From Enhydrobacter aerosaccus (GTDB lineage: Bacteria; Pseudomonadota; Alphaproteobacteria; Reyranellales; Reyranellaceae): DNA of 32,000 nt. Of the stretch, positions 7,614-31,337 are shown one piece after another. Within the stretch, counting starts at the first letter, position 1, and each line of letters begins with the position of its first letter. Below the pieces are notes generated by a model. It ran no database searches and was not told where the DNA came from. It saw nothing but the letters and a program-made list of their open reading frames with translations. Where the stretch lies: the NCBI RefSeq assembly GCF_900167455.1, contig NZ_FUWJ01000008.1:153378-185377 (forward strand), read 5' to 3'. Position numbers and translations under genes: made by a program.

Positions 7614-7883
7614 TCTTCTTGTACTCACATTCGCCAGAGGGTTTGGCGCAGCGATCGGCAACTTGGCAGGGGCAGCTCTTCAGACTCCGGTGCTCGGTAC
7701 GGGGCCTCTCCTGATAGTGACTTGGCCGCCGACCACCGCAGCAACACGCGTCCTGCTGGCTGCGTCGATGCATCTCGATCAACGCCTTTCCCTACCAGCA
7801 CGTGGCTGTCGAAAGAGCACATCACACCAGGGAGGACTCGCTTGAGTACTGCCGAGCCATTTGGAGAAGGCGAGGTCCCCCCG

Positions 7884-11559: not shown

Positions 11560-11560
11560 G

Positions 11561-12043
11561 CTAGCTCCATCCGCGGCGCAACAGCTGGAGGAGCTTATCG
11601 CGCACAAGCGGAAGCGATCGTTCCACTTCCGGCGAGAGCCCAACTTTGAAGTCCAGGCTCTTGGGTTGGACGCCTATCAGGGCGCGCTCTAACGGCAGCA
11701 CCTCCTGCAGGCGGGCGACATCCAGAATATCGCGCAACGCTACCTCATGGGCGGTGTGCCGCGCGCCTCCCAGCTGACGGTCCATGTCGATGCCAAGAAA
11801 GCAGCGCACCGTGCCCGGTTCTGCCGCCAAGTGTGCCGCGTCGACCACGACGAGACGGTTGCATCGCTCGATATGCGACAACAGTTCGAATACTGCCGTG
11901 CCGCCGTCCAGAAGAAGCAGGTCCGCGGGGAAATCGGAAGCGTCCTGGGACCTAAGATAGGCAATCGCGCGAGTCCCCAGGCCATCGTCCGCGTAGGATG
12001 AATTGCCGTAACCCAGCACCAGCGTCGAGAGCCGATTCTGCAT
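11561..12043 (-). CDS. HyaD/HybD/HupD-family hydrogenase maturation endopeptidase
   Basis: Start at ATG 12043 (MQNRLSTLVLGYGNSSYADDGLG), which is the G-x-G-N-x-x-x-x-D-D-G-x-G signature. About 160 aa, the typical size. Sits 2 nt after the hypD stop. Confidence 0.85.
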   Translation of the reverse strand: MQNRLSTLVLGYGNSSYADDGLGTRAIAYLRSQDASDFPADLLLLDGGTAVFELLSHIERCNRLVVVDAAHLAAEPGTVRCFLGIDMDRQLGGARHTAHEVALRDILDVARLQEVLPLERALIGVQPKSLDFKVGLSPEVERSLPLVRDKLLQLLRRGWS

Positions 12044-12045
12044 TG

Positions 12046-13173
12046 TCAGGCCGCGACGCCAGTACGCCGATGAGGCGCGTGTGTGCGGTTGTGTAGGCCC
12101 GAGGTCCACCAGATGTGACAGGCGCCTTCGTCCGACACCATGCACGGTCCGATCGGACGTCGGGGCGTGCAGGCTTTGCCGTAGAGCTTGCAGTTCGTGG
12201 GCACCACCTTGCCCAGGACCACACGGGCGCAATCGCAGCCCGGCGGCATTTCTCCTGCGTGTCGACGGGCGGCGTCCTGTGGTGACGCCAGCAGGCTGCG
12301 CGCGTCACGGCTTGCAAAAGTTTCTGAAAGGGCAAAGCCGGAGCGGGCAATCGTGCCAATGCCGCGCCAATTCGCATCCACGATCCGCATCGAGTGCGAC
12401 AACTGCTGCTGCGCCACGCGATTGCCGCCGGGCCGTACGATCGCCGGATAGCAGTTCTTCAAGTGGGCCGTGGTCGCGAGAAGCTGCGTCAGGACGTAGT
12501 AGGTGGCGGCCAGCAGGCTTTCCGCCGTGAAGCCCGCCACGGCAATCGGCAGGCCATAGCGTTCCGCCACGAACGACCATTCTTCCGGCCCCATCACCGT
12601 GGCGACGTGACCCGGTGCAATCAGGGCATCGAACCCTGGCTTCTCTGAAGCGAGCAGCATGTCGACCGCCGGCCAGGTCAGCCGGCCTGACACCAGGAGG
12701 AAAAGATTGTCTGGCACGCCTTGGCACAGCATCGCGGCGACCGGCGCCATCGTGGTCTCAAAGCCAGCGGCGAAGAAGACCACGCGCTTGTCCGGAAGCG
12801 CCCGCGCAATCGCCACAGCCTCCCGCGGACTGGCAATCGGCCGGATGTCGGCACCGGCGCCGCGCGCATCACTGAGGCAACGCGGATCGCTTCTGGCGGC
12901 GTTGATCGGCACACGCAGCATGTCCCCGAACGCAACGACGACGACATCGCATTCGCGCGCAAGCCGCATGGCGTCGCAAATGTCTTCTTCGGGGCAGACA
13001 CAAACCGGACAGCCCGGTCCGGGAATGATCCGAATTGTCTCGGGCAGGGCCGCCCGCAACCCGGTGTGAGACAGCGTGCGTTCGTGTCCGCCGCAGACAT
13101 TGAGAATGCTAACCGGGTGATCCAATGGCAGATCGCGGAGTCGATCCAACCAGACCTTAGCCGTGGCGCTCAT
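12046..13173 (-). CDS. hypD: Hydrogenase maturation protein HypD
   Basis: 375 aa with the CGGHE and GPGCPVCV motifs. Confidence 0.93.
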   Translation of the reverse strand: MSATAKVWLDRLRDLPLDHPVSILNVCGGHERTLSHTGLRAALPETIRIIPGPGCPVCVCPEEDICDAMRLARECDVVVVAFGDMLRVPINAARSDPRCLSDARGAGADIRPIASPREAVAIARALPDKRVVFFAAGFETTMAPVAAMLCQGVPDNLFLLVSGRLTWPAVDMLLASEKPGFDALIAPGHVATVMGPEEWSFVAERYGLPIAVAGFTAESLLAATYYVLTQLLATTAHLKNCYPAIVRPGGNRVAQQQLSHSMRIVDANWRGIGTIARSGFALSETFASRDARSLLASPQDAARRHAGEMPPGCDCARVVLGKVVPTNCKLYGKACTPRRPIGPCMVSDEGACHIWWTSGLHNRTHAPHRRTGVAA

Positions 13174-13939
13174 GGGCCGACTCTCCTATGACGGTTGCCG
13201 GCTTCGCCGCTCGACGATCCAGCCGCTGCCGATCAAGCCAGTCGATCCATGGGTCAAGGCCGCCCTTGCTGCGCACCGAGATGCCGATGACGGGAGAGAC
13301 ACAGCCGATCTCCCGGACTGCCGCTTCCGCCCGGTCGAAACGAAAATCGTCAAAGTGCGGCAGCAAATCGGTCTTGCTGACCAGAATGATGTCGCTGCCC
13401 CGGAACATGATCGGATACTTGGCCGGCTTGTCGTCGCCTTCGGGCACCGACAGCAAGGTGACGTTCCGATGCTGGCCAAGGTCGAACGACGCTGGGCAGA
13501 CGAGGTTCCCTACGTTTTCGATGAAGAGAACATCGAGGCCCTGTAGCGGCATGTCGTGCAAGGCCGCGTGGATCATTTGCGCGTCGAGATGGCAGGCCGT
13601 TCCAGTGGTGATCTGCACTGCCGGAACACCATGTCTCCGGATTCGCGCCGCGTCGTTCTCAGTTGCGAGATCTCCCTCGATGACGCCGATGTGCAGTCGA
13701 CCTTTCAGGGCTTCGATCGTCGCTTCGAGGAGCGCGGTCTTGCCGGACCCCGGTGCCGACATAAGGTTCACAGCGAAGACATTCGCCTCGTCTAGATGCG
13801 CCCGATTATGCTTCGCCATCCGATCGTTCTCGGCCATGAGATCGTGGAGCACGGTCAACGACCGGGGCTGACGGCGTGGCGTTGAGTCATCGTGATCATG
13901 GCGCGAATCATGCGCCGCGCATCCACAGTCATTGCACAT
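13157..13939 (-). CDS. hypB: Hydrogenase nickel-incorporation GTPase HypB
   Basis: N-terminal MCNDCGC metal site plus a short His/Asp-rich stretch, P-loop SAPGSGKT, and ENVGNLVCP and SKTDL motifs. Confidence 0.93.
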   Translation of the reverse strand: MCNDCGCAAHDSRHDHDDSTPRRQPRSLTVLHDLMAENDRMAKHNRAHLDEANVFAVNLMSAPGSGKTALLEATIEALKGRLHIGVIEGDLATENDAARIRRHGVPAVQITTGTACHLDAQMIHAALHDMPLQGLDVLFIENVGNLVCPASFDLGQHRNVTLLSVPEGDDKPAKYPIMFRGSDIILVSKTDLLPHFDDFRFDRAEAAVREIGCVSPVIGISVRSKGGLDPWIDWLDRQRLDRRAAKPATVIGESAHERHG

Positions 13940-14294
13940 GAGCTTCCTCCGCTGTTTCCAGCTCCAAGCTTTGGAAAATCAGGTCCTTCCCGCTGGCGAC
14001 ACGAACGTCGGCTGTATCGCAGGCCGCGCATCGCATATGACTGAGCCGGCCCGGCGTCTGCCTGCCGCACCGGCGGCATTCGAGAATCAATGGAGCCCTC
14101 TCAATGACGAGCTGAGCGTCATTGGCGACCGTGCCTCGCCGGGCGGCAGTGAAGGCCCGTTGCAGCAGCCCCGCCTCCACCCCCGCCAAAGGTCCGATTC
14201 GGACGGTCACGGACAGGACCCTGGCCGCGCCGTGCTTTCGGGCAAAGCGAGCGACCTCGTCGAGCAGAGCCTGACATATCGAAAGTTCGTGCAC
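13929..14294 (-). CDS. hypA: Hydrogenase nickel-insertion protein HypA
   Basis: 121 aa. MHE N-terminus and a zinc site CRRCG...CAAC. Confidence 0.9.
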   Translation of the reverse strand: MHELSICQALLDEVARFARKHGAARVLSVTVRIGPLAGVEAGLLQRAFTAARRGTVANDAQLVIERAPLILECRRCGRQTPGRLSHMRCAACDTADVRVASGKDLIFQSLELETAEEAHVQ

Positions 14295-14543: not shown

Positions 14544-15398
14544 CTAGAGGACCTCTAGGATCAATGAGAAGCGTTCATTGGCGACTTTGCGTTGCTGTTC
14601 GGTCAGGTCCGGCAGGAGCCGGGTGAAAGCCGTCGCAACGTAGCGAAGCGCCGCAATTCGCGCGGAAAGACGCCGTTCCTGCTGGCGCACCAGGGCTACG
14701 GCGTCCAACGGCTCGTTCGAGGGCGTCTGTTCCGTGAATGCCCGGCGGTCCGCCGCTGCTGCTGAACGTACCGATTCGGCAAAGCCAGTCCAATTCGCAG
14801 GTTCGGGCTGACCGATTCCGATCTCGTCGCGGAATCGCGTCAATCGGACTTCGACTTCTGCCGGCGCTACTGGTTGCCGGTCGGCAACAGAAGGAGGGGC
14901 AGGGGCAGGGCGCGCAGCAGGCATGGGCATGGTATGCGGCTCTGGTGATGCTGCAGATCCCGCTCCCTGCTGGGGGGCTGGCGGGCGTCCGTGCATTGAC
15001 ATCGTGGGCGACCCGGAGAGCTCTCCAGTGCCGCTTGAGGGTGCCGGTTCCGCAGTGGCTGCGGAGGCAGGGGGAGAAGCCCCGGTGCTGCCGCCTGGAC
15101 AGAAGAAGCTGAAGTCGCCGGTCGCCCTGCCTTTGTCGAACTCGGCCCAGTTCGGCTGAACACGATGGGCAGGAAGACTGTCGAAGGTTCCTGTCTGATG
15201 GCACATCGCACAGTGGGACTGGTGAGCCGGCACACGCAGGCGCCCTTGCGAAATGCAGTAGGTGTCGATCAAGTCGCCATAGCCTTGGCTTGGCCTTGCC
15301 ATCGTTGACACGCCGCCGGCGAGGGCGAGCGTCGTGATCAGCAGCCCGGCCAAGGTCATCTTACGGTCAAGCATGCTGGTGTTCCGCGTACTCGGCAT
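14544..15398 (-). CDS. Secreted fusion protein: N-terminal domain with one CxxCH (putative monohaem cytochrome c), Pro/Ala-rich linker, C-terminal LTXXQ (Spy/CpxP-like) domain
   Basis: 284 aa. Begins 6 nt after the hydrogenase large-subunit stop. Hydrophobic leader (MTLAGLLITTLALAGGVSTMA), CAMCH motif, and C-terminal LPDLTEQQRKVANERF. The C-terminal ~100 aa align by eye with the C-terminus of the protein at 18292..19011. The start codon is uncertain (M1, M9 or M14). Confidence 0.6.
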   Translation of the reverse strand: MPSTRNTSMLDRKMTLAGLLITTLALAGGVSTMARPSQGYGDLIDTYCISQGRLRVPAHQSHCAMCHQTGTFDSLPAHRVQPNWAEFDKGRATGDFSFFCPGGSTGASPPASAATAEPAPSSGTGELSGSPTMSMHGRPPAPQQGAGSAASPEPHTMPMPAARPAPAPPSVADRQPVAPAEVEVRLTRFRDEIGIGQPEPANWTGFAESVRSAAAADRRAFTEQTPSNEPLDAVALVRQQERRLSARIAALRYVATAFTRLLPDLTEQQRKVANERFSLILEVL

Positions 15399-15404
15399 GG
15401 CGCC

Positions 15405-17129
15405 CTAGAGGACCTTGACCTCGACAAGCTCACGTCCGCCCGGGTCGATGACGTGCACGGCGCAGGCCAGGCAAGGGTCGAAGCTGTGGATGGTCCTCAG
15501 GATCTCGAGCGGCCGCGTAGCATCGGCGAGACGATGCCCTCGCAGGGCGGCCTCATAGGGGCCATCTTGTCCCCGCGCGTCGCGCGGACCCGCGTTCCAG
15601 GTGCTGGGAACGACCGCCTGATAGTTTGCGATCTTGCCTTTCTCGATGGCAACCCAGTGTGCCAGCGCGCCGCGTGGCGCTTCCATGAACCCTGCGCCAC
15701 GGGCCTGAGGTGGCCACGTTGAGGGATCGAACAGGCTGTCGTCGAACGTGGCTCGATCGCCGGCCGCGATGTTGCGCAGCAGCGCGCTGTGCATGTCCGC
15801 GAGCGCATCAGCCAGAATCTTCGTTTCAAGGGTTCGTGAGGCAACGCGGCCCAACGTTGAGAAAAGACCTTCGATCGGCAGATCCAGCCGCTTAAGGCTG
15901 CTATCGATGAGTTCTCTCGCCTTGCGATCTCCGGTCGCATAGAGCAGCAGCATGCGCGCCAGCGGGCCGACTTCCATTGGTTTGCCACGCCAACGCGGTG
16001 ACTTGATCCAGGAATAGGAACGATCGACGTCGAGGTGCTCGTACGGTGGCTGTGGTCCCGTGTAGTTCGGGCGCGTTTCGCCATCGTACGGGTGAAGCGG
16101 CTTGTGCTTGCCGACCGAATAATCGTACCAGGAGTGGCTCACGAACTCCTGGACCTGCGCCGGATCTTCGAGATCGACGGGTAGCACCTTCGACAAATCG
16201 CGATCGAGAATGGCGCCGCGCGGAAACAACAGGGTCGACGAATTGAATGTATCGGTCCCGCGTGGAAGATCACCATAGCATAGGAAGTTGCCGGTGCCTT
16301 CGCCTACCTTGCTCCAATCCTTATAGTAGCTCGCGATCGCCAGGGTGTCGGGTAGGTAGACGTGATCTACGAAGTCACGCATCTTCTCGATAATGACGCC
16401 CACCTGCTTCAGGCTTGCAGCAGATACGGCCGTCACCTGCTCGCCCTCGCTGATCGTACAGGGAGCGCCCCCGACCACGAAGTTCGGGTGCGGATTGCGG
16501 CCGCCGAAGATGGCGTGAATCTTGACGACCTCGCGTTGCCACGCCAACGCCTCCAGGTAGTGGGCAAAGGCCAGCAGATTGACCTCGGGGGGCAACTTGT
16601 ACTCGGGGTGACCCCAATAGCCGTTGGTGAAGATCCCGAGCTGGCCACCGTCAACAAAGCGGCGCAGTCGGTCGCGGACAGTCGCGAAATAGTCCGTGCT
16701 GTTGTTGGTCCAGGGGCTGAGAGAGCGCTGCAATCGTGACGTTGCACCGGGGTCGGCGCTGGCCGCCGACATCACGTCCACCCAGTCGAGGGCATGAAGA
16801 TGATAGAAGTGCACCACATGGTCGTGGACGAACTGCGTCGCGATCATGATGTTGCGGATGAGCTGGGCGTTCGGGGGAATCTCGTATCCCAGAGCGAACT
16901 CGACGGCGCGCACCGATGCGATGCTGTGAACCACCGTGCACACGCCGCAGAATCGTTGCGTGAACGCCCAGGCATCGCGTGGGTCACGTCCGTTCAGGAT
17001 CAGTTCGATGCCACGCATCATGGTGCCGGAGCTCGAAGCGCGGGTGATGAACCCGGAGGCATCGGTCTCCGCCTCGATCCTGAGGTGCCCTTCGATGCGG
17101 GTCACCGGGTCAACGACGATGCGCGCCAT
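15405..17129 (-). CDS. [NiFe]-hydrogenase large subunit (group 1, periplasmic uptake type)
   Basis: 574 aa. N-terminal RIEGH and RFCGVCTVVH motifs, C-terminal DPCLACAVH followed by a 15-aa extension (VIDPGGRELVEVKVL) for endopeptidase processing. GGAG-type RBS about 10 nt upstream. Confidence 0.95.
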   Translation of the reverse strand: MARIVVDPVTRIEGHLRIEAETDASGFITRASSSGTMMRGIELILNGRDPRDAWAFTQRFCGVCTVVHSIASVRAVEFALGYEIPPNAQLIRNIMIATQFVHDHVVHFYHLHALDWVDVMSAASADPGATSRLQRSLSPWTNNSTDYFATVRDRLRRFVDGGQLGIFTNGYWGHPEYKLPPEVNLLAFAHYLEALAWQREVVKIHAIFGGRNPHPNFVVGGAPCTISEGEQVTAVSAASLKQVGVIIEKMRDFVDHVYLPDTLAIASYYKDWSKVGEGTGNFLCYGDLPRGTDTFNSSTLLFPRGAILDRDLSKVLPVDLEDPAQVQEFVSHSWYDYSVGKHKPLHPYDGETRPNYTGPQPPYEHLDVDRSYSWIKSPRWRGKPMEVGPLARMLLLYATGDRKARELIDSSLKRLDLPIEGLFSTLGRVASRTLETKILADALADMHSALLRNIAAGDRATFDDSLFDPSTWPPQARGAGFMEAPRGALAHWVAIEKGKIANYQAVVPSTWNAGPRDARGQDGPYEAALRGHRLADATRPLEILRTIHSFDPCLACAVHVIDPGGRELVEVKVL

Positions 17130-17163
17130 CGAACATTTTCTCCCTCAAGCCGGGCTCGTTTGG

Positions 17164-18132
17164 CTAGAACGGCTTTGTGTAGAAGCCGCCAGGGCGATCC
17201 CAGAAACTCGGCTGCGCACAGCCCAGACAACCGTGGCCGGAATACATTGGAAAGCTGGTCCCTTGGTTCCACTTGATCGTCGTGCAGGCATTGAACGTTA
17301 GTGGCCCCTTGCAGCCGAGATCCTTGAGGCACCAGCCCTTGCGAGCGCCTTCGTCGTCAAAGCTGCGCGCGAACTGCTGGCGCTCGAAGAACGGCAAGCG
17401 CGTGCAATTGTCGTGAACGGTCTTGCCGAAGAAGATCTTGGGCCGGCGCAGATCGTCGAGGGCGGGAATCGAACCGTAAGTGAGATAGTAGGTGACAAGG
17501 CCTGTGATCACTTCGGGCACGGGGGGACAACCAGGAATGTTGACGATTGGAGCCGTCACCTTGCCGGCCGCCACGAGGTCGCCGAGCGCGTCTGCCGCTC
17601 CGAAAGCACCGGAAGGATTTGGTGCGGCCGCCCCGATGCCGCCAAAGGCGGCACACGTACCGACCGAGGCAATAACCGCCGCCCCTTGGGCGGCATTGCG
17701 GACCAGCGACAGGCCTGCCTTGCCTCCGGTCGTTGACCGCGCGCCCGCATCCTTTCCGGGAATTGAGCCATCGACGATGAGGAAATACTTGCCCCAATTC
17801 TGCTCGATCGCCCGATCGCGCGCTGCCTCCGCCGCTGCGCCGGCTGCCGCTTGAAGCACGTGGTGGTAGTCCAACGAGATGGAGTCGAGGATCAGACTCT
17901 CCAGAGTTGGCTCGAAGGAGCGGAGCAGCGATTCGCTGCAGCCGGTGCATTCTTGTACCGACAGCCAGATCACGCTTGGCCGGGGCTTGGACGCAAGAGC
18001 TTGCGCAATCACTTCCGCGCTTCCCACCGGCAAGGTCAGCACCGAGCTCATGTACCCACAGAACTTCAGGAAGCCGCGCCGTGACACACCTTGGTTTCGC
18101 AATTCTTCGTAGAGCGATGGACGGACTCCCAT
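17164..18132 (-). CDS. [NiFe]-hydrogenase small subunit, Tat-exported, no C-terminal membrane anchor
   Basis: 322 aa. Tat motif SRRGFLKF, proximal cluster ECTGCSES and GTCAAFGG, GCPP, distal/medial cluster cysteines (HDNC, GCKGP, GHGCLGC). The protein ends 12 aa after FWD. Confidence 0.95.
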   Translation of the reverse strand: MGVRPSLYEELRNQGVSRRGFLKFCGYMSSVLTLPVGSAEVIAQALASKPRPSVIWLSVQECTGCSESLLRSFEPTLESLILDSISLDYHHVLQAAAGAAAEAARDRAIEQNWGKYFLIVDGSIPGKDAGARSTTGGKAGLSLVRNAAQGAAVIASVGTCAAFGGIGAAAPNPSGAFGAADALGDLVAAGKVTAPIVNIPGCPPVPEVITGLVTYYLTYGSIPALDDLRRPKIFFGKTVHDNCTRLPFFERQQFARSFDDEGARKGWCLKDLGCKGPLTFNACTTIKWNQGTSFPMYSGHGCLGCAQPSFWDRPGGFYTKPF

Positions 18133-18291
18133 GGCACCGCCTCCTTCCGACTAGCGACGGTCTCTTAGTTGGCTTTTGGCGACACCAATGCGTGAGAAGC
18201 GATATCGCGCCCCCAGCTGAGGTTGGGGGATACTGGGGTTTACTTCAGCCAAGGACGCGATATCGCCGGGGGGCCACGGTGCGCTCGCTTG

Positions 18292-19011
18292 CTACCGAAT
18301 GCCCATGTGCGGCGCGATGAGTTCGTTGGCGATTTTCTTCTGCTTGTCGTCGAGCGCCGCATAGAGCTTCGCGTAGGCGGGCTTCAACGCCTTCACGCTT
18401 TCCAGGCGCACCGTGAGCCAGCGCTCTTGATCATCCAGTCGGTCGGCGGCGGTTGTCGTGGTCCGCTGCGGCTGACCCTTTTGGGCGTCCTCGACGCGCT
18501 TTGCATTCGTGCGCATAACGGTCGCAAACTCTGTCCATGTCGGCATCTGCGGTTCCGTGATCTTCAGCTCAGCATGAAGGTAGGCGATGCGACCGTCGAT
18601 GTGGTCCGTGGGCAGATCCATCATGCGGGTTTGCATCATCATCTGCATCATCTGGGGGCCCATCATGGCTCCGGGTCCCATTGGTCCCGCCACTTGACCC
18701 TGCACGCCAGGACCTTGCATCGCTCCGCACTGTCCGCCAGAGCAATCACCGGGTGTCTGCATGTTCTGCATGCCCGAGCCACCCATGTTGTGGCCTTCCA
18801 TGCCCATGCTCTTTCCCTGGCTCTGCATGCCCTGGCCTTGCATGCCTTGGCCCTTCATACCCTGACCCTTCATGCCCTTATCGTCGTCCATCATCTGCGC
18901 AACGACGATCTTTGTCGGATCGAGGGTCTGCGAAGAACCGATCGCCGGGGCAAGTACGATGGTCGCCATCGTCGCTAGGCTTGCAGCAGATAAGAAGTTC
19001 ATACGTGTCAT
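18292..19011 (-). CDS. Secreted Met/Gly/Gln-rich protein with a C-terminal LTXXQ (Spy/CpxP-like) domain
   Basis: 239 aa. Signal peptide (MTRMNFLSAASLATMATIVLAPAIG), a KGMKGQGMKGQGMQGQGMQSQG repeat tract plus MMGPQMMQMMMQTRMM, and a helical C-terminus ending LDDKQKKIANELI. AAAGGAA RBS upstream. Confidence 0.7.
   Translation of the reverse strand: MTRMNFLSAASLATMATIVLAPAIGSSQTLDPTKIVVAQMMDDDKGMKGQGMKGQGMQGQGMQSQGKSMGMEGHNMGGSGMQNMQTPGDCSGGQCGAMQGPGVQGQVAGPMGPGAMMGPQMMQMMMQTRMMDLPTDHIDGRIAYLHAELKITEPQMPTWTEFATVMRTNAKRVEDAQKGQPQRTTTTAADRLDDQERWLTVRLESVKALKPAYAKLYAALDDKQKKIANELIAPHMGIR
18823..18880 (-). repeat. About 3.8 tandem copies of a 15-bp unit encoding the G-M-x-G-Q pentapeptide repeat
   Basis: Plus-strand units ctgcatgccctggcc / ttgcatgccttggcc / cttcataccctgacc / cttcatgccctta, read directly from the sequence. 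Confidence 0.85.
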
Positions 19012-19270
19012 GGGAGTTCCTTTCTTCTGAAGCCAGTTTGTCAGCTACGTGGTTGCCTGCTCTTTTGCAGTGGCGCGGAACGCGGGGCAGTCGGGCGTCC
19101 TCTAAGTTGAGGCAATGCCGTTCGTGGCCAGCGACGTAGCAATATGCGTTTGAGCGGTTCCGGGCGGTCAGCGTGCTTTCACGTCAATCCCCTCTAGAGC
19201 CAGCCTTCTGGCCGTGCCGTGTCTCGTTGCGATGCATTTGAAAGTATTCGGCCAATGAGGCTGATCACGC

Positions 19271-19286
19271 TGTCCCATTTGGGACA
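19271..19286. promoter_or_regulatory. Candidate operator, palindrome TGTCCCATTTGGGACA
   Basis: Perfect 6-bp inverted arms with a 4-bp spacer, in the 708-bp divergent intergenic region between the hydrogenase cluster and the reductase module. Confidence 0.4.
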
Positions 19287-19504
19287 CGTGCGCGAATTCT
19301 GCCGCGGGCTCGTACAAGGGGCATGCGCCAAAGCAATAGGCCCCGTTTCTGCGCCGGACATCTCAGGGGCCGAGGCTATTGCGGTGGGAGTGAACTCGCC
19401 AAGCTTGATGCCCTAAGCGATCGCGACAGTCCCAGGTCGAGCAGATTGAGGGGGCGCCATTGAGGGCCCGGCAGGCGGCAGATCACGCTAGAAATCTGCA
19501 TATG

Positions 19505-19520
19505 TGTCTCAAATTGGACA
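19505..19520. promoter_or_regulatory. Candidate operator TGTCTCAAATTGGACA (same motif, 14/16 to site 1 on the opposite strand)
   Basis: Lies in the same intergenic region, 200 nt upstream of the GTG at 19720. Confidence 0.4.
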
Positions 19521-19719
19521 GCGCAATTCGCCTCTTTGATCAATAGACGCAGAACCGATGCGGAGAAGGTCGGGCAGCGGGCAAGGATGCTTGTAACCAT
19601 GCGGGGCAGGGTTGTTCATCCTGAAGTCAACGTCGCTCGTCAATCTGTTGAAGGGGCAACGCGTGCAGAGCGTCCAGCAAAGGTGTGTCAAGAACATCGA
19701 GTAATATTGGGAAGCAGCG

Positions 19720-21672
19720 GTGAAGAGTGAATATCCGCCGGCCCGCAATAAGGCGATGCGCCGTGGCTTGATGCTTCTGGCGGTAGCCGTTTTTGGAGGT
19801 GCAGCTCCCGCTGCTGCACAGCCCGCAGATTCCCATTCCGAGCATCATCCCGGTCAGACGCCGTCCGCTCCGTCTGCCGGCCAACCGGCACCATCATCCG
19901 CCGGCGGCATGGAGATGATGGGCTCGATGATGGGCGGCCCACCCAGAAAGCAGCTCTATCCCCAGCTGATGGAGTTGCCGGTCATGACCCCGGAAGCCCG
20001 TCTCAAGATTGAGACGGACGCGCGAGCCCGAATTGTCACCGGCAACGCGGCACTCGTACAGGGGCAGGACGATTATCACCGCGCTGCGATGAATAATGAC
20101 GCGGCCGCAATGTCAGCCGCCTTGTCTCGCCAGCGTGCTGCGTTGGCAGAGATCGAGAGCGGCACATCAGCGTTGCGTGCGCTCGCAGAGGGGAGTCCGC
20201 CCCACGAGATTGCCTTGAGCTGGTTCCGTGACCAGATGAATCTCGCTCGGCCGACCTCGCCAGTACAAGAAGAGGTTGGACCGCTCAACCTATCTTGGTT
20301 CCACATCGTCTCCATGACGGTGGTACTGCTGTTCGCGCTGACGATGCTTGTCGTCGGTGTTGGGCGTCGACATCGCTCGCTTGCCTTGGTCAATCGTTTG
20401 ACTCGACCAGCCGGCCCCCAACCAGCGCAGGGTCGTGCGCCCGTACCGATCTCTGCCTCCCCTACGCCCACGACTCCAGCGGTATCCCCTCCACCACCGC
20501 CGTCGACAAAGGTCCAGCAGTCACCTCCGCTACCATCGCCTCCAACGTCTATATCGACATGGTCCGGAACGCTGCGCGTCGCCAGCATTGTTCGTGAGAC
20601 ACCTCTCGTAAAGACCTTCCGGCTGGTTGAGCCAGGAGGTGGCGCTATCCCGTTCTCCTATGCCCCCGGCCAGTTCTTGACTTTCTCAGCGCAGATCGAC
20701 GGCAGACTGGTGCGCCGATCCTACACGATCGCCTCGCCACCAACACGGACCTCGTACGTGGAGGTCACCGTCAAGCGCGAGGAGGAGGGGGCGTATTCAC
20801 GCTTCCTGCACGACAGCGTCGTGCCTGGCAGCGTGCTGCAGGTTCGTGGCCCCTCGGGTGTGTTCACCTTCGATGGGGGAAACGCCGAAAGTATCGTCCT
20901 GATCGCCGGCGGCGTCGGTATCACGCCCATGATGTGCGTGATCCGCTATCTGACGGACATGAGCTGGCCAGGCGAGATCTTCCTGATCCTTGCTGCACGG
21001 AACACCGACGAGCTGATCTTCCGTGAAGAGCTCGAGTACCTGCAGCGCCGTCATCCCAAGCTCCATGTTGTGGCGTCGGTCGGCGCGAGGTCGGAAGGAT
21101 CAGCATGGATGGGCTTGGAAGGCCAGATAACGAAGGACGCACTCGCCCATGCAGTACCTTCACTAGAAATTCGACGCGTCCACCTGTGCGGTCCACCGCC
21201 CATGATGGAGACTATACGGCGCATCCTGAGCGAATTGGGTGTGCCAGCCAACCAGGTCAAGACTGAAGCTTTTGGTCCGGCCACCGGGGCCGTGCCGCCG
21301 CCGCGTCCTCTGCCGCCCCCACCGCCACCTTTGATGGTGACGGAGCTTGTCGAGCGGGTCGAGGCTGCCACACCTCCGTTGATGGAACCCATACCGGTGG
21401 CGGGTCCGGCGACGGCGACCATCTCCTTCGACCGGTCTCACAAATCAGCGCCTCTCCCGCCCGACAAGACGGTCCTTGAGGTGGCGGAGTCGATCGGCGT
21501 GCCGATCGACTACTCCTGCCGCGTAGGGACCTGTGGCCTCTGCAAGACCAAGTTGCTGGCTGGTCAGGTTACTATGGAGGTTCAGGACGCGCTGACGGAC
21601 GACGATAAGGCGTCCGGGATAATACTCGCCTGCCAAGCCCATTCTCTGGGCGACATCACGGTCGACGCCTGA
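19720..21672 (+). CDS. Membrane-tethered oxidoreductase: signal peptide, His/Met-rich periplasmic helical domain, one TM helix, FNR-type FAD/NAD(P)-binding core, C-terminal plant-type [2Fe-2S] ferredoxin domain
   Basis: 650 aa. MRRGLMLLAVAVFGGAAPAAA/QP leader; HSEHH and GGMEMMGSMMGG; TM at about residues 191-215 followed by RRHR; Pro-rich linkers; RRSYTIAS (FAD), VLIAGGVGITP (NAD(P)), HLCGPPPM; CRVGTCGLC...ACQA (2Fe-2S). GTG start at 19720, or ATG at 19756. Confidence 0.8.
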   Translation: MKSEYPPARNKAMRRGLMLLAVAVFGGAAPAAAQPADSHSEHHPGQTPSAPSAGQPAPSSAGGMEMMGSMMGGPPRKQLYPQLMELPVMTPEARLKIETDARARIVTGNAALVQGQDDYHRAAMNNDAAAMSAALSRQRAALAEIESGTSALRALAEGSPPHEIALSWFRDQMNLARPTSPVQEEVGPLNLSWFHIVSMTVVLLFALTMLVVGVGRRHRSLALVNRLTRPAGPQPAQGRAPVPISASPTPTTPAVSPPPPPSTKVQQSPPLPSPPTSISTWSGTLRVASIVRETPLVKTFRLVEPGGGAIPFSYAPGQFLTFSAQIDGRLVRRSYTIASPPTRTSYVEVTVKREEEGAYSRFLHDSVVPGSVLQVRGPSGVFTFDGGNAESIVLIAGGVGITPMMCVIRYLTDMSWPGEIFLILAARNTDELIFREELEYLQRRHPKLHVVASVGARSEGSAWMGLEGQITKDALAHAVPSLEIRRVHLCGPPPMMETIRRILSELGVPANQVKTEAFGPATGAVPPPRPLPPPPPPLMVTELVERVEAATPPLMEPIPVAGPATATISFDRSHKSAPLPPDKTVLEVAESIGVPIDYSCRVGTCGLCKTKLLAGQVTMEVQDALTDDDKASGIILACQAHSLGDITVDA

Positions 21673-21673
21673 C

Positions 21674-22354
21674 ATGGGCGACAAAGAGCGAGTTGTCGTC
21701 CTGGCGCTCGGAACACTGCTGCTCTTCCTTGCGCCTGGCTATCTCTTGCACGTTTCGCCGCGCTTTGCGGGCAGCCTGGCCGGCGGAGTACTGGGGATCA
21801 TGGCAGCAACTTTCATGCTGCTGGCGCTCGTCTACCCCGCCGTCAAGTACATCGGTTGGCTGAAAGTTCGCGTGACGCGGCATGTTTCGCTGGGCCGCCT
21901 TCTTAGCTTCCACATCTACGGCGGGCTTCTAGCATCCCTGATTGCCATCCTGCATTCGGGACACAAATATCAAAGCGGCCTGGGCATCGCGCTGATTGCG
22001 GATATTGTGATTGTGATCGGGACGGGCTTTATCGGCCGTTACTATCTTGCACATCTCGGGACGGAAGTACGCCGGCAGCAGGCGCTGCTCGGGACGTTAC
22101 GCACGGCCTATGATCGCATCGCGCTTCACCTCGGGCGCCAAGCCACTGTCGGCGCAGCCGCACCGGATGTCCCTATCCTGACACTCGTCGATGCGATTGC
22201 AGACATCGAATACTCGCTCGGGATGCGCGACACCGCCAAACGTATCGCCGGTCGATGGATTGTCGTCCACATCGTCGCGTCGATTCTAATGTACGGGCTC
22301 CTGTTGCTGCATATCGGCGGAGGAATCTATTATGGGCTGCGGTGGCTTCCATGA
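21674..22354 (+). CDS. Integral membrane protein, about 5 TM helices, with H-x13-H on two helices (putative dihaem cytochrome b, ferric-reductase-domain/DUF4405-like)
   Basis: 226 aa. H80/H94 in predicted TM3 (FHIYGGLLASLIAILH) and H199/H213 in TM5 (VHIVASILMYGLLLLH). Starts 1 nt after the reductase stop. Confidence 0.6.
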   Translation: MGDKERVVVLALGTLLLFLAPGYLLHVSPRFAGSLAGGVLGIMAATFMLLALVYPAVKYIGWLKVRVTRHVSLGRLLSFHIYGGLLASLIAILHSGHKYQSGLGIALIADIVIVIGTGFIGRYYLAHLGTEVRRQQALLGTLRTAYDRIALHLGRQATVGAAAPDVPILTLVDAIADIEYSLGMRDTAKRIAGRWIVVHIVASILMYGLLLLHIGGGIYYGLRWLP

Positions 22355-23091
22355 AATGGAAGGCGCTTATTTACCTGTTGCTTGTAACGGTGACCGTCGC
22401 CAGCTCTATCATGGCTGTCGGTACCGTCTATCGTAAGGGATCGGCAAGCTTGCCTCACTGGGCGACATTGGTGAGGCCGGGCGCCCTTTCAACCAAGCAC
22501 GCCTTTCTCTCCAATCAGTGCGAGGCGTGCCATACGCCGGTCAAGGGCGTGGAAGCCGCAGCCTGCATCTCATGTCATGCGGCCGATGCCACGACGCTCG
22601 CCCGCGAATCGACGGCCTTTCACGCGACCATTCAGACCTGTGCGACATGCCACGTCGAGCATTTGGGTGAAGTCCGTCCGACCCGCATGGACCACGATGC
22701 TCTGATCGCAATCGGGCGCTCGAGGCTCGTGAACCAACCGTCTCCCTGGTTTGCGTCACTGTCGGGTCACGCGCCCGCTGACTTGGGCACGCTCGATTGC
22801 TTCGCCTGTCACAGCAACCGCAGTCCGCACCGCGACCTGTTCGGTAAGGAGTGCGCTGCCTGCCATTCGACGGCGACGTGGAATGTGGCGGGCTTCAAAC
22901 ACCCGTCGCCCAGTTCGACCGAGTGCGCGCAGTGCCATCAAGCCCCGCCCAGCCATTACATGGGTCACTTTGAGATGGTCTCGGAGAAGGTGGCGGGCCA
23001 GGAGCATGCCCGGGTCGAGCAATGCTATCTCTGCCATCAAACTGATGCTTGGAACGACATCAGGGGGGTGGGCTGGTACAAACATCACTAA
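22351..23091 (+). CDS. Membrane-anchored heptahaem c-type cytochrome (cytochrome c3/multihaem family)
   Basis: Start at ATG 22351, overlapping the upstream stop (ATGA). N-terminal TM anchor (ALIYLLLVTVTVASSIMAVGTV). Seven CxxCH motifs: CEACH, CISCH, CATCH, CFACH, CAACH, CAQCH, CYLCH. Confidence 0.85.
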   Translation: MKWKALIYLLLVTVTVASSIMAVGTVYRKGSASLPHWATLVRPGALSTKHAFLSNQCEACHTPVKGVEAAACISCHAADATTLARESTAFHATIQTCATCHVEHLGEVRPTRMDHDALIAIGRSRLVNQPSPWFASLSGHAPADLGTLDCFACHSNRSPHRDLFGKECAACHSTATWNVAGFKHPSPSSTECAQCHQAPPSHYMGHFEMVSEKVAGQEHARVEQCYLCHQTDAWNDIRGVGWYKHH

Positions 23092-23166
23092 GGGAGTAGA
23101 CATACAGAAGAAAGAAGAGGGCTCGACACTTTCGCATTATTGCGCTCAAGTGAATACCTCTGGCGA

Positions 23167-23182
23167 TGTCCCAAATTGGACA
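23167..23182. promoter_or_regulatory. Candidate operator TGTCCCAAATTGGACA (15/16 identical to the 19271 site on the opposite strand)
   Basis: Lies in the 378-bp lower-GC intergenic region upstream of the DUF2933-ICMT pair. Confidence 0.4.
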
Positions 23183-23469
23183 TCAGCGAAGGGTGAACTA
23201 CCAGTAAAGTTCCTCCCTCATCGCTCTGGCCGTACTTCGTTGGTGGTTTCGGAACCTTGGTCCGCTGTTTAACAATCACGGGCTCCTGCATCCTCACAAG
23301 CCCCCGCCTTGCGGCTCATCTGCCATGGTCAATGGCATGACCCCAGCCATTCGCGGATCTACAGCGCGCGCCAGTGCACGCGTTCCTCAGAAGGGGCCAC
23401 ATTCGAAGTGTCCAACGACTTCTGGCGGCGCTGTCTCGCCTCGATCAACACAGAGGGGCCGACGGACAA

Positions 23470-23712
23470 ATGGATCATACAAATAAGCCAGCTTGGTGGC
23501 GTCAACCGTTCCCCTGGGTGCTGATCGGCTTCCTCACTGCAGGCGGTTTTCTCCTGTTTACCGAACACCGAGCGCACGTTCTAGGTGTTCTGCCCTTCCT
23601 CCTTCTCTTGCTGTGTCCTGTGATGCATCTCTTCATGCATCATGGGCACGGCGGTCGCAGCGGGCAGCGACGCAACGCTGATGATCGGCTTAACGAAACC
23701 CATCACGACTGA
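23470..23712 (+). CDS. DUF2933-family small membrane protein
   Basis: 80 aa from ATG 23470. One TM helix, then EHRAHVLGVLPFLLLLLCPVMHLFMHHGHGG, the pattern I associate with DUF2933. Confidence 0.65.
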   Translation: MDHTNKPAWWRQPFPWVLIGFLTAGGFLLFTEHRAHVLGVLPFLLLLLCPVMHLFMHHGHGGRSGQRRNADDRLNETHHD

Positions 23713-24404
23713 TGACGAAGGCGATCTTGCAAGATCACTCTCCTGCCTATGGGCTCTGGTTTCTGGTCATCGTCAACTCGGTGATCTTCATCGGATTCGC
23801 CTTCGCCTTCTTCAAGCCGCATACAGGGCGTGACTGGCGTTCCTTTGGCGCCTTCAGTGCCTTCTTGGTTGCACTGTTCGCCGAAATGTATGGCTTTCCG
23901 CTGACGATCTACGTCTTGTCAGGTTGGCTGCAGAGTCGCTTCCCTAATGTTGACTGGTTCTCCCACGACGCCGGTCATCTCCTCGAGATGATATTTGGCT
24001 GGCAGGCAAATCCACACGCCGGCCCGTTCCACGTGTTGAGCTTCCTCTTCATCGGTGCGGGCTTCTTGCTGATATCGGTAGGCTGGAAGGCACTCTATCA
24101 GGGCCAACGACAGCACCAGCTGGTCACGACTGGCGTTTATGGCTACATGCGTCATCCCCAATACGTCGGCTTCATCCTTGTGATGTTCGGCTTCCTGCTT
24201 CAGTGGCCGACCTTGTTGACCCTGACGATGTTCCCCGTGCTCGTCTTCATGTATGTGCGCTTGGCTCGCGTCGAGGAGCGGGATGCCGCCGCTGAATTCG
24301 GCAGTCTGTATGAACGCTATCGACACGACGTTGCTGGCTTCGTCCCGCGGCTATCGGGATTCTTTTCCGCACCCTCTCGCCGGGCTGCGAACGATGAAGA
24401 ATGA
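23712..24404 (+). CDS. Isoprenylcysteine carboxyl methyltransferase (ICMT)/PEMT-like membrane methyltransferase family protein
   Basis: 230 aa, multi-TM. Carries the LVTTGVYGYMRHPQYVGF signature and RLARVEERDAAAEFG. The ATG overlaps the DUF2933 stop (TGATG). Confidence 0.85.
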   Translation: MTKAILQDHSPAYGLWFLVIVNSVIFIGFAFAFFKPHTGRDWRSFGAFSAFLVALFAEMYGFPLTIYVLSGWLQSRFPNVDWFSHDAGHLLEMIFGWQANPHAGPFHVLSFLFIGAGFLLISVGWKALYQGQRQHQLVTTGVYGYMRHPQYVGFILVMFGFLLQWPTLLTLTMFPVLVFMYVRLARVEERDAAAEFGSLYERYRHDVAGFVPRLSGFFSAPSRRAANDEE

Positions 24405-24783
24405 GCGAAAACCGGGGTGCCCTGGCAGGAGAGGCATCGGCTTCGCTTGCAGCGTGATGTACTTCGGGGTCTTGGTCATTGCGACTATCGGCCTACCTGG
24501 TGCCGCACGGGCCACTGACACGTGCCGCAGTGCACTTGAGGACTTGGTAACGGAGTGGCGATCCATCGCCGTGCCGGGCAAGCCCGAGCCGCCCGACCAC
24601 GTCCACACAGCGCTCGAGGTCTGGTACATGCGCGGCCAACTACGACTGGCGCTCCGGTTGTGCGAAGAGGACAAAGACCACGAAGCCATGCTGCGAATGG
24701 ATCTCGTAAGAGCTTGGCTCAGACTTCCAGAAGTGCGCCATCCGGCCGATCACCGTTATCGCTATGACGACGATCTTCGCTGA
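24394..24783 (+). CDS. Hypothetical small exported protein
   Basis: ATG 24394 overlaps the ICMT 3' end by 11 nt. Hydrophobic leader (MYFGVLVIATIGLPGAARA). No recognisable domain, so coding status is uncertain. Confidence 0.3.
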   Translation: MKNERKPGCPGRRGIGFACSVMYFGVLVIATIGLPGAARATDTCRSALEDLVTEWRSIAVPGKPEPPDHVHTALEVWYMRGQLRLALRLCEEDKDHEAMLRMDLVRAWLRLPEVRHPADHRYRYDDDLR

Positions 24784-24958
24784 GTTGGGTTCGCGGGTTG
24801 GCGGTTTGTCAGGTGGGTGACGATCGCCGGAAGAGGGGATGCGCTCGCCAACCAAAGCCTGGATCCATTCATCGACAATCATTGATTCGACCTGAAGCCG
24901 AGCGATGTCGCGTGCAGCCGTGCTTCCGTGCGGCGTGGTCTTTTGAGGGCAAGATGAC

Positions 24959-25864
24959 ATGCGTCGCATGAGCCATTCCGCCTCGGCGTTGGGCAGGTTG
25001 GGCCTTACCGTCGTTGCGGCATTGGATGCCCTCTGCTATCCGCTCATTTTGGTGGGTGCGAGCAGTGCTCCTCATTTGACGTTTGCCGCCCTAAGAGCAT
25101 TGGTTGCTGGCGCAGTATTGGCTGGAGTTGCGATCCGCCTCGGCCGCCCGATACCTCGTGAACCGCGTACTTGGGCATATCTCGCGCTCATCGGCATTGG
25201 GACGATAAGCTTTGGCTACCTGGGAATGTTCAGAGGTGCCGAGTTTGTTTCGCCTGGTATGGCAACCACAATTACTCACGTGCAGCCGTTCATTGCCGCG
25301 CTACTGGCATATCCGCTCTTGGCGGAGAGGCCGACTTCCCATCAGGTCATCGGTCTCATGCTCGGTTTTGTGGGCGTTCTCGTTGTTGCGATCCCACCTT
25401 GGATGGGCGGTCGCTCCAGCGACTTCTCTCTAGGCTTTTTGTACCTCGTGATCGCAGCCATAGGCGTCGCAACCGGCAATGTCCTCACTCGCAAGGTCGC
25501 TGGCAACGTTGACCCGATCGTGGCTACGTCTGCACAGTGTCTTTTCGGCTTCTTGCCGTTGAGTGCCACCGCTGTTGTTGTTGAGGACCCGCTGGCCGTT
25601 GTGTGGTCCTACAGTTTTGTCGGAAGCCTGCTCGGTCTGGCCTTGGTCGGCACAGCCTTGGCTCGGTGCCTATGGTTCGCACTCCTGAGCCGTGTCCCGC
25701 TACATGAAGGCAATGCCTTTACTTTCTTGACGCCGTTCATCGCACTGGGCTACGGCGCATTGTTCTTCGGAGAGGATATTGAAACCTCTACCTTCTTGGG
25801 CTTGGGCGTCGCAGCCTTGGGCATTTTGTTCGTGGAATCAGACAGCGCACGTCAAAGGAAGTAA
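24959..25864 (+). CDS. EamA/DMT-superfamily transporter
   Basis: 301 aa with about 10 hydrophobic helices arranged as two EamA-like halves. Confidence 0.85.
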   Translation: MRRMSHSASALGRLGLTVVAALDALCYPLILVGASSAPHLTFAALRALVAGAVLAGVAIRLGRPIPREPRTWAYLALIGIGTISFGYLGMFRGAEFVSPGMATTITHVQPFIAALLAYPLLAERPTSHQVIGLMLGFVGVLVVAIPPWMGGRSSDFSLGFLYLVIAAIGVATGNVLTRKVAGNVDPIVATSAQCLFGFLPLSATAVVVEDPLAVVWSYSFVGSLLGLALVGTALARCLWFALLSRVPLHEGNAFTFLTPFIALGYGALFFGEDIETSTFLGLGVAALGILFVESDSARQRK

Positions 25865-26094: not shown

Positions 26095-26358
26095 CTACTG
26101 ACCAGACTTGCCGGTAGCTGGTCCACTCGAATGGCTTGGCGTAGCCGGCATGTTGTGCTGCTGCTGTTGAATCTCCTTCGTTTCACCCGGCTTGGGTGAC
26201 GAGGAGTGGCCGTGCGTTCCGGGTCCGGGTTGCGTTCCGCCCTGTATGTGCTGGCCCTTCGTGGCATCGGTTGATTGCGCCCACGCGACTTGAGTGAACG
26301 CCATGAACCCCAACGCACTTGCGGCAGTCGCCAAGGCCAGTTTCCAACGATTCATCAT
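26095..26358 (-). CDS. Small secreted low-complexity (His/Gln/Pro/Gly-rich) protein
   Basis: Start at ATG 26358, with AGGAGA 6 nt upstream. Signal peptide MMNRWKLALATAASALGFMAFTQVAWA. The mature ~60 aa includes THGHSSSP and QQQQHNMP. Confidence 0.45.
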   Translation of the reverse strand: MMNRWKLALATAASALGFMAFTQVAWAQSTDATKGQHIQGGTQPGPGTHGHSSSPKPGETKEIQQQQHNMPATPSHSSGPATGKSGQ

Positions 26359-26530
26359 GACAGGTCTCCTTTGATGAAACCTTGGACCAAGTGTGCGGTT
26401 CACGCTGTTCAATCTGAGACTCGAATTCAATCGTGCCAATGATCTCGCATCAGCTGTCCGGGGACGACCAGCACAGGAGTAGTTCTTGCATTTATCGCTA
26501 ATGGGCGACGCAATCGAATCCATCGACATT

Positions 26531-27241
26531 TCAATCCATTTCGCCCAATCGTCTCAGACGAGAATGCACCTTGATTGTGCCGGGCGGCGTCCGGCCTCCG
26601 TATTCGATTAGGTTGAGACGCCTGAACTTGTTCAGGAAGTAGTTCACTCGCGGACGCGTTGAGCCGATGAGATTTGCCAGCATCTCCTGCTTGACGTTCG
26701 ATGTGATGCCGAAGTCGCGACTCCCGTTGCCGACGTTGGCAAGTTTGAGCAGTACGCGCGCCAAACGCTGTTCGGCCGATCCGACGAGCTGATCAATCAA
26801 GGCGGCTTCGGTTTCGAGGCTGTGTGCAACCAGAAATGCCGTAAACGCGCCAGCGAGGTCTGGCCACTCCCGGAGCAAGTTGGGCATCAAGCTCCTATCG
26901 ATCCTCGCGATTTCAGCGTCTTCAACGACAACGGCTGATGTAGTGCGATACGGCTTGTTCGCGAGGCATTCCTCGCCACAAAAATCACCGGGGCCGAGGA
27001 TTGCGACGAGACGGTCGTCGCCTTTCTCGGTCGTCACTAACCGGTGCACTTGTCCGTACCCGATGTAAAAGATTGCATCCGCTGGATCCCCCTGGCGGAA
27101 CAGGGGGCGGCCTGCTGAGTACCTCATATGTGGAAACTGGACGCAAAGCTTTGCTTGCGAACCGTTGACGTACGCCCGCTTGAGAGGGACATCGTCCAAG
27201 TGTTCAATCCCGCTCGACGGACCAAGTGTCTGCTCGCCCAT
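26531..27241 (-). CDS. Crp/Fnr-family transcriptional regulator
   Basis: cNMP-binding-like barrel (RPLFRQGDPADAIFYIGYGQV...LGPGDFCGEECL) and a C-terminal HTH (QEMLANLIGSTRPRVNYFLNKF). The start is uncertain: ATG 27241 gives 236 aa, ATG 27367 gives 278 aa with an extra Cys-containing N-terminus. Confidence 0.85.
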   Translation of the reverse strand: MGEQTLGPSSGIEHLDDVPLKRAYVNGSQAKLCVQFPHMRYSAGRPLFRQGDPADAIFYIGYGQVHRLVTTEKGDDRLVAILGPGDFCGEECLANKPYRTTSAVVVEDAEIARIDRSLMPNLLREWPDLAGAFTAFLVAHSLETEAALIDQLVGSAEQRLARVLLKLANVGNGSRDFGITSNVKQEMLANLIGSTRPRVNYFLNKFRRLNLIEYGGRTPPGTIKVHSRLRRLGEMD

Positions 27242-27519
27242 TCTCCGAAGAGGGTCCGTGACGGGACAAGGTTTGGTTTCAAGCGCGCGGTGGCGAAGTT
27301 GACTGATGGGCGGATTTGGGCAGACGCATGGGAGAGCGTCATGCCTCGATGACAGTGGAGATTTCATAGCTGAGCCATGGTCTAGAAGGGAGAGAAGCGC
27401 GAATGATGCGGCGCACGAATCATCCGATCCGTGTCGTCCCTCAAATGGTCGCACGCGAATCACCAACACCGATGGCCTAAGGAGCCACCGAGCTTCTGGC
27501 TTGCACTACGACGATTTGA

Positions 27520-27936
27520 CTAGTGAGCGCGCGGAGGTCTCTCTAGCCGACCTTGGCTTCTGCCGCACAGCGACGCCGCTACAGTGACAACTGCGCTGAG
27601 TGGCAACTGCGATGTTCGACTGTAGTAGTTTCTGCTACCGATGGCGGCGTGACAAGCGACACCGCAGCAATCGTCGTTGAGATCGACATCCGATGATGTG
27701 TCGTTCGAGCGACCAATGTCCCGTGACTGAGCGAATGCCGCGGGCGACAAGGCAGCCGCTGCTCGCTCTCGCGGTCCCACTGCGTGTATGGATCGCGAGG
27801 CGTCGCCATAGACGGAATGATCCGGGTGGGCAGGAACTGCTCGCTGCTCATGATGAACAGGCGAGTGAGCCGACGCCGCACCACCAAAGGCGAGTGCGCA
27901 TATCAAAGCTACGAAGACTATGCCCAAAACGCGCAT
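27520..27936 (-). CDS. Secreted His-rich protein with a DDCCGVACHAA motif (uncharacterised; paralogue at 31647)
   Basis: Start at ATG 27936 (MRVLGIVFVALICALAFGGAASA signal peptide). 138 aa. Shares its architecture and the CC-x-VACHAA motif with the partial ORF at the right edge of the window. Confidence 0.5.
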   Translation of the reverse strand: MRVLGIVFVALICALAFGGAASAHSPVHHEQRAVPAHPDHSVYGDASRSIHAVGPRERAAAALSPAAFAQSRDIGRSNDTSSDVDLNDDCCGVACHAAIGSRNYYSRTSQLPLSAVVTVAASLCGRSQGRLERPPRAH

Positions 27937-28082
27937 GCCACATCCGCGTGCTTCAGGGTTGGCCGAACGGCACACAACCGATGGCGCTTCGACTATGCGT
28001 CAGAAGCCCGGAACAAGCCAGTATCATCGACTGCTGCATGAAAAGACTACGCTAACCGTAGGCTCTGCCGGCCCGGTTTTCC

Positions 28083-31291: not shown

Positions 31292-31337
31292 GATCTAAGT
31301 CACTGACCGGAAATGATCTAAGTCACTGACCGGAAAT
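31292..31337. repeat. Perfect 23-bp tandem direct repeat (gatctaagtcactgaccggaaat x2)
   Basis: Read directly from the sequence, 37 nt downstream of the csoR stop. Each unit contains the small palindrome GTCAcTGAC. Confidence 0.9.

Follow-up and report, generated by a model that had tools for sequence, protein, structure and literature searches.

Copper regulons in bacteria are normally assigned to regulators of the CueR (MerR family), CsoR, CopY or CusRS/CopRS types, and a limited literature search of incomplete coverage found no copper regulator belonging to the Crp family. Within this family, CRP of Escherichia coli, which combines cNMP-binding and HTH_Crp_2 domains and controls catabolic genes, binds 16-bp dyads of 5-6-5 geometry (TGTGA-N6-TCACA), while FNR and FixK recognise TTGAT-N4-ATCAA; a site centred at -41.5, over the -35 region, is the arrangement of class II CRP/FNR activators. 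In copper-resistance contexts, CsoR operators are GC-cored dyads of the form ATACCC-N4/5-GGGTAT. The site of MrpC (GTGTC-N8-GACAC) was not found in our literature search and was kept out of the evidence. Two further members of the Crp family have TGTC...GACA as the outer part of their sites: Cmr (Rv1675c) of Mycobacterium tuberculosis, which carries a proline at the position of the CRP glutamate, binds TGTCA-N6-[C/T]GACA (PMC4705688), and CooA, a CO-sensing activator whose target operons include a hydrogenase, binds TGTC-N8-GACA / TGTCGGCnnGCCGACA (PMC7306483; PMC545781).

Here, we present the analysis of a window of 32,000 nucleotides, i.e. the whole stretch of DNA under study (Enhydrobacter aerosaccus, contig NZ_FUWJ01000008.1, positions 153,378 to 185,377), in which copies of a 16-bp palindrome lie ahead of several operons. 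Judging from sequence comparisons, these palindromes are most likely CRP/FNR-family operators of the TGTC-N8-GACA class: operators of this kind are well known, while the regulon that they would define on this mobile copper island was previously undescribed.

Methods

Homologues of the Crp/FNR-family regulator of the window were traced to their contigs, mainly from Reyranella and further Alphaproteobacteria, with a Nitrospirae MAG in addition, and locus maps were established by tblastn synteny. A position weight matrix (PWM) was built from the four strong sites of the window alone and applied to 11 diverged loci bearing the regulator gene (crp), amounting to 192 kb and encoding regulators 42-59% identical. 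A second set was gathered independently of the regulator: the unk226 gene (described below) served to retrieve 79 metagenome loci, from which 33 non-redundant clusters with a minimum length of 8 kb were formed.

Results

Genetic context of the window

The window belongs to a conjugative element (TrbI at 31-720) with a copper-resistance island, and a near-identity search of its positions 18100-24500 against plasmids returned no match. A CusF-domain protein, the multicopper oxidase CopA and CopB are encoded on the minus strand at 2526-5877 (Pfam), next to an SbmA-like gene at 6437-7714 on the plus strand. The reading frame of this SbmA/BacA-like gene shows an apparent frameshift after roughly 270 residues: the second segment of the tblastn alignment lies in a different frame of the intact gene of another locus (L003).

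A hydrogenase cluster occupies 14544-19011 on the minus strand (Pfam) and reads, in the direction of transcription, LTXXQ1, NiFe small subunit, large subunit, LTXXQ2, followed on the same strand by the hyp/hup maturation genes (8253-14294). The NiFe hydrogenase (15405-18132) is a Tat-exported uptake enzyme, its large subunit being closest to that of Allochromatium vinosum (3myr, E = 5e-257), and it has no adjacent cytochrome b or Isp genes, LTXXQ proteins standing on its flanks instead. LTXXQ1 (18292-19011) is extremely Met-rich, with 28 methionines, MKGQG-type repeats and DNA repeats at 18765-18877, and LTXXQ2 (14544-15398) holds one CxxCH haem-binding motif. At three related loci (L005, L007, L017), the small-subunit gene matches only the first ~148 residues, and the cluster is seemingly truncated there.

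Three genes follow on the plus strand at 19720-23091. The first encodes a membrane FAD/NAD/2Fe-2S reductase, Red650 (19720-21672; Pfam, NCBIfam), composed of a signal/transmembrane segment, a Met/His-rich periplasmic domain, a transmembrane helix and the FAD/NAD/2Fe-2S domains; the second, a His-rich membrane protein, unk226 (21674-22354; sequence features), with 5-6 transmembrane helices and six invariant histidines; and the third, a seven-haem cytochrome c (22255-23091; Pfam, NCBIfam, sequence features). Taken together, the predicted products resemble a chain for electron export from NAD(P)H to the periplasm. This operon is widespread, and most of the 79 metagenome loci have it next to copA/copB/ATPase/csoR; we know of no described function for it.

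Downstream, a DUF2933 protein and an ICMT-family methyltransferase are encoded at 23374-24404 (plus strand; Pfam), and EamA at 24959-25864 (plus strand). The minus strand then carries the genes of a small secreted His/Met-rich protein (26095-26358), of the Crp/FNR-family regulator (26531-27367; Pfam cNMP_binding and HTH_Crp_2), of a small exported Cys-rich protein, unk151 (27520-27975; synteny, alignment), and of a copper P-type ATPase (28592-30940). In most loci, the gene of unk151 directly precedes crp; the protein combines a hydrophobic segment at its N-terminus with an invariant D-C-C-G-x-x-C-H motif and, at the C-terminus, a conserved GRSQGPPERPPR, and it may be a metal-binding partner of the regulator. 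At the end of the window, csoR (30980-31255, plus strand) is followed by a perfect 23-nt tandem duplication (GATCTAAGTCACTGACCGGAAAT x2, 31292-31337). A canonical CsoR operator, ATACCCTGCGGGGGTAT (30953-30969), sits in the 39-bp gap between the ATPase start at 30940 (minus strand) and the csoR start at 30980, so that the ATPase/csoR pair would form a regulon separate from the genes preceded by the TGTC motif.

Distribution and sequence of the palindromes

A first-pass annotation of the window had listed three palindromes, at 19271-19286, 19505-19520 and 23167-23182, each between annotated genes, and had put the chance expectation for copies with at most two mismatches at 0.02. The coordinates are exact and the arithmetic is right (1129 variants x 64,000 positions / 4^16), although two sites had been overlooked, at 6170-6185 and, in degenerate form, at 26406-26421. 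When the window was searched with the 23167 site, allowing up to three mismatches, four independent loci (6170-6185, 19271-19286, 19505-19520 and 23167-23182) came within one mismatch, vs 0.16 matches expected from dinucleotide shuffles. All the window sites are intergenic and pointed at a gene start.

Site 1 (6170-6185, minus strand; TGTCCAATTTGGGACT forward, AGTCCCAAATTGGACA on the minus strand; one mismatch; 22.4 bits) is located between the CusF-domain gene and the SbmA-like gene and faces CusF-CopA-CopB, its predicted target operon. Site 2 (19271-19286, minus strand; TGTCCCATTTGGGACA forward, TGTCCCAAATGGGACA on the minus strand; 24.9 bits) faces the predicted LTXXQ1/hydrogenase target, and site 3 (19505-19520, plus strand; TGTCTCAAATTGGACA; 22.9 bits) the predicted Red650-unk226-cytochrome c target. 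Site 4 (23167-23182, plus strand; TGTCCCAAATTGGACA; 24.8 bits) faces DUF2933-ICMT, also a predicted target. The degenerate site 5 (26406-26421, minus strand; AGTCTCAGATTGAACA on that strand; 13.2 bits) was found by comparison with relatives, directly after crp and 45 nt ahead of the start (ATG) of the small secreted protein. No strong site was found upstream of the unk151-crp pair of the window, though some orthologues have one. Two weaker relatives proposed in the first-pass annotation, at 24807-24822 and 27253-27268, both scored below 8 bits with the PWM and were rejected as sites, and the latter, believed to lie upstream of a crp ATG at 27241, falls inside an N-terminal coding extension whose conserved start is at 27367.

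The four strong sites of the window are 16-bp dyads, TGTCC-N6-GGACA, with two 5-bp half-sites 6 bp apart, and the 38 non-redundant sites collected from all loci gave the consensus wGTCyMAW|WTKrGACw, with an A/T-rich centre and no variation in GT and AC. In a half-site covariation test, the variable pairs were complementary at or below the independent expectation; the half-sites thus vary independently, as in the site of a dimeric protein, which argues against a hairpin. A structured RNA element was discarded, compensatory changes not being seen and an Rfam scan of the window giving no match, and a sigma-54 or extended -35 reading of TTGGACA, examined by eye, has a spacing that does not fit.

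The dyad shares its 16-bp 5-6-5 geometry and the TGT start of its half-sites with E. coli CRP sites, and differs from them at positions 4-5 (C-C/T here vs G-A). It has the outer TGTC...GACA of Cmr, with other inner bases (C/T-M-A-W here vs A-N), and orthology with Cmr, a regulator of dormancy-related genes outside any copper context, is not indicated. The outer consensus is also that of CooA sites, whose centre is GGCnnGCC instead of A/T-rich. A CooA regulon or orthologue was nevertheless rejected, since the window has no CO dehydrogenase gene and CooA was absent from the nine NCBIfam matches and the 60 best PDB sequence matches of the regulator; moreover, the hydrogenase of the window is of the periplasmic uptake type. 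FNR/FixK sites differ in both half-site sequence and spacing, and CsoR operators resemble the palindromes in being GC-cored dyads found in a copper-resistance context, and differ from them in lacking the TGTC/GACA flanks.

Four of the five sites (1, 2, 3 and 5) share more than the dyad. A module of about 45 nt, made of the palindrome and a further ~29 nt and oriented to the downstream gene, is 71-76% identical across these four window promoters (repeat scan families D1 and I1, site 5 being in D1). Part of the likeness within the window therefore reflects promoter duplication and not independent selection, and the evidence from other genomes is independent of this duplication.

Co-occurrence with the regulator across genomes

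Scanned with the window PWM at a threshold of 13.5 bits or more, the 11 diverged crp loci gave 17 matches vs 0.98 expected, each locus having at least one. Orthologous positions were hit repeatedly, namely those ahead of Red650-unk226-CytC, of LTXXQ genes, of the small secreted protein and of unk151-crp. The position of site 2 is occupied at the orthologous LTXXQ genes of L008, L012, L013, L014, L023 and L034, and that of site 3 at the Red650 operons of L012, L013, L014, L033 and L034. Site 4 is kept in close relatives (L005, L006, L007, L017), the position of site 5 holds 16-20-bit sites in L001, L002, L005, L023 and L047, and the unk151 orthologue is preceded by a site in L009, L023 and L098. 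In the diverged loci, the 16-bp dyad and an A/T patch resembling a -10 box are kept and the flanks differ.

In the set chosen through unk226, a site of at least 16 bits was present in 6/6 clusters with crp vs 2/27 without it (Fisher p = 2.5e-5). Both crp-less exceptions are cut at a contig end, and one of them, L061, is homologous to L066, where crp sits further along. Matches of at least 14 bits numbered 16 in 111 kb of crp-bearing sequence and zero in the 429 kb of 25 crp-less representatives, and crp was the only DNA-binding gene of these clusters that tracked the motif. A tblastn search of plasmids with the regulator yielded nothing beyond distant paralogues (44% identity or less); these have an RSRVS helix and no motif nearby, and they served as a negative control. 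Our scans covered the loci around these genes, and the regulon may be wider, or a second regulator may have the same specificity.

Promoter geometry

Over the 38 sites, TA-initiated -10-like hexamers peaked 22-23 nt after the palindrome end (19/38 sites vs ~1.6 per other offset, in an orientation-blind count), with a position-specific A/T signal at offsets 22-29. The corresponding predicted -10-like patches of the window lie at 6143-6148 (site 1, minus strand), 19244-19249 (site 2, minus strand), 19542-19547 (site 3, plus strand, offset 22-27) and 23204-23209 (site 4, plus strand). These boxes are weak; since sigma-70 consensus scans around the sites called no promoter, the geometry was derived from position-specific composition. 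Setting the hexamer at -12 to -7 places the centre of the dyad at -41.5/-42.5, in the -35 region, an arrangement under which the regulator would probably work here as a class II activator, the site replacing the -35 element as in E. coli CRP. The predicted 5' leaders would be ~160-360 nt long for 4/5 units, and with such lengths the true promoters could lie elsewhere, the sites acting at a distance or as repressor sites.

An inverted repeat with 25-bp arms and no T-run after it lies at 18199-18266, between LTXXQ1 and hydS. This hairpin may act as an attenuator or mRNA stabiliser setting the LTXXQ1:hydrogenase expression ratio, and the hydrogenase operon is a probable target of site 2, assuming read-through from LTXXQ1 past it.

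The Crp-family regulator and its possible signal

The regulator is a 278-aa protein from the ATG at 27367, with PF00027 and PF13545 domains. Databases probably give its gene a wrong start, the ATG at 27241, with a product of 236 aa, and homologues conserve the 42-residue N-terminal extension with its C-x-C...C motif. Residues 78-268 align to solved CRP-family structures, and the AF2 model has a canonical CRP core (pLDDT around 90) preceded by a disordered, Cys-bearing N-terminal stretch of 70 residues, for which it is uninformative on a metal cluster. No named NCBIfam equivalogue matched the protein, which scored 50 bits vs a CRP cut-off of 266 and stayed below the FNR cut-off.

In the recognition helix (TRPRVNYF), R-P-R-V-N-Y aligns to the R-E-T-V-x-R/K of solved CRPs, R-E-T-V-G-R in E. 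coli CRP, so that the CRP arginine is kept and a proline replaces CRP Glu181. The retained arginine is consistent with the conserved TGT of the half-site, and loss of the glutamate that reads the fourth base would account for the change from G to C, for which Cmr, with both the proline and a TGTC site, offers a precedent. The effector pocket is also modified: the cassette reads F-C-G-E-E/D-C (FCGEEC here), with one invariant and one nearly invariant cysteine flanking G-E, and the phosphate-binding arginine of CRP is not conserved within the subfamily. An E. coli-type CRP site or regulator was thus rejected on the TGTCy core, the helix, the low score and the variable cassette arginine, and the regulons differ likewise, a mobile copper island here vs catabolic genes there. 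Most members of the subfamily have an N-terminal C-x-C-x17-C tail. An N-terminal cysteine tail with internal cysteine(s) and the class II geometry recall the FNR/FixK branch of the family, yet C-x-C-x17-C with FCGEEC departs from the C-x2-C-x5-C and C122 of FNR.

The predicted products of the regulon are Met/His-rich and periplasmic, and copper resistance is the gene neighbourhood in nearly every locus, which makes copper stress, or a consequence of it, the most likely stimulus. In locus L097, a class III nucleotide cyclase gene (395-1696) lies ~8 kb from the crp orthologue, among CusF/cytochrome c genes, and a cyclic-nucleotide input to the regulator family is thereby possible.

Discussion

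We favour, with a probability of about 0.78, the reading in which the palindromes are operators of the Crp/FNR regulator encoded at 26531-27367, which would act as a class II activator of five units of the island. The comparisons show the sites, a statistical excess of copies, conservation across loci, joint occurrence with the regulator and a -10-like box at constant spacing; binding by this protein, activation as opposed to repression, and a copper signal are inferences. A dimer of the regulator would recognise the consensus via its TRPRVNYF helix and sit ~41.5 bp upstream of the transcription start, in place of a -35 element, with a weak -10 box 21-22 nt later. It would switch on cusF-copA-copB, LTXXQ1 with the periplasmic NiFe hydrogenase, the reductase/membrane protein/multihaem cytochrome module, DUF2933-ICMT and the small secreted His/Met-rich protein, in response to copper stress or its consequence, possibly sensed via the invariant cysteines of the effector pocket. 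The first-pass annotation had seen in the palindromes a CRP-type operator with an altered core, which agrees with their TGTC-N8-GACA class and with the tracking of the local Crp-family gene by the motif. Its proposal that DUF2933-ICMT, the reductase/cytochrome module and the hydrogenase side have an operator in common is supported by the conservation of the motif upstream of orthologous operons, but drew the regulon too narrowly, cusF-copA-copB and the small secreted protein being predicted members as well.

The same protein could instead work as a repressor or dual regulator, its site lying over the real promoter or forming a roadblock that copper or another signal would release. CRP-family proteins can repress, site 5 is very close to its ATG, no good -35 or -10 was called, and class II activation, if correct, would imply long leaders; on the other hand, the constant distance of 21-22 nt between palindrome and -10-like box is a signature of class II activation, and repression would lack an independent promoter to occlude. 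We consider this mode of action unlikely. Still less probable is that crp merely travels with an operator owned by another regulator, be it CsoR, LysR or an unlinked copper-responsive factor. The CsoR and LysR genes of the window had made both proteins candidate binders in the first-pass annotation, and the CCC-N4-GGG core of the 19271 site is superficially CsoR-like. Nevertheless, a canonical operator of its own is available to CsoR at 30953-30969 and loci with CsoR and without crp (L027/28, L029, L085) are without the motif, which removes the palindromes from the CsoR operators. LysR is an unlikely binder: no other locus bearing the motif encodes it, and its T-N11-A geometry does not match an even 16-bp dyad. 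Two-component response regulators, for their part, usually bind direct repeats, and no DNA-binding gene other than crp tracks the motif.

A duplicated promoter fragment, a small mobile or REP-like repeat, or an RNA/DNA hairpin, any of them acting with no dedicated regulator, would explain the 45-nt module shared by four promoters of the window, and the palindrome could form a 6-bp stem. This is nonetheless very improbable: diverged loci keep only the dyad and the -10 patch, complementary pairs are not in excess, Rfam has no match, and the crp-less loci, of similar context, are devoid of matches over their 429 kb. A MITE- or REP-type dispersed repeat was rejected as well, given that only 16-45 nt are common, that the sites always face gene starts and that these control loci have none; neither the surroundings of the sites nor the repeat scan gave a sign of terminal repeats or target duplications.

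Beyond the operator reading itself, a more far-reaching proposal would make the regulator a new sensor of copper, or of a copper-induced thiol/redox change, binding Cu(I) on its pocket cysteines, possibly together with the N-terminal C-x-C...C, and activating the -41.5 sites. Copper detoxification would thereby be coupled to a periplasmic uptake hydrogenase and to electron export from NAD(P)H to a multihaem cytochrome. In this complete form the proposal is speculative and somewhat unlikely; if true, it would describe a reductant-powered periplasmic copper defence carried by a conjugative element.

Conclusions

Genes of copper efflux and oxidation, Met-rich periplasmic proteins, a NiFe hydrogenase and a widespread, unstudied reductase-cytochrome module appear to be united under one CRP/FNR regulator with a distinct site. 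The predicted operator would provide an experimental handle on the role of this module and of the hydrogenase under copper stress, and on the signal to which the regulator responds.
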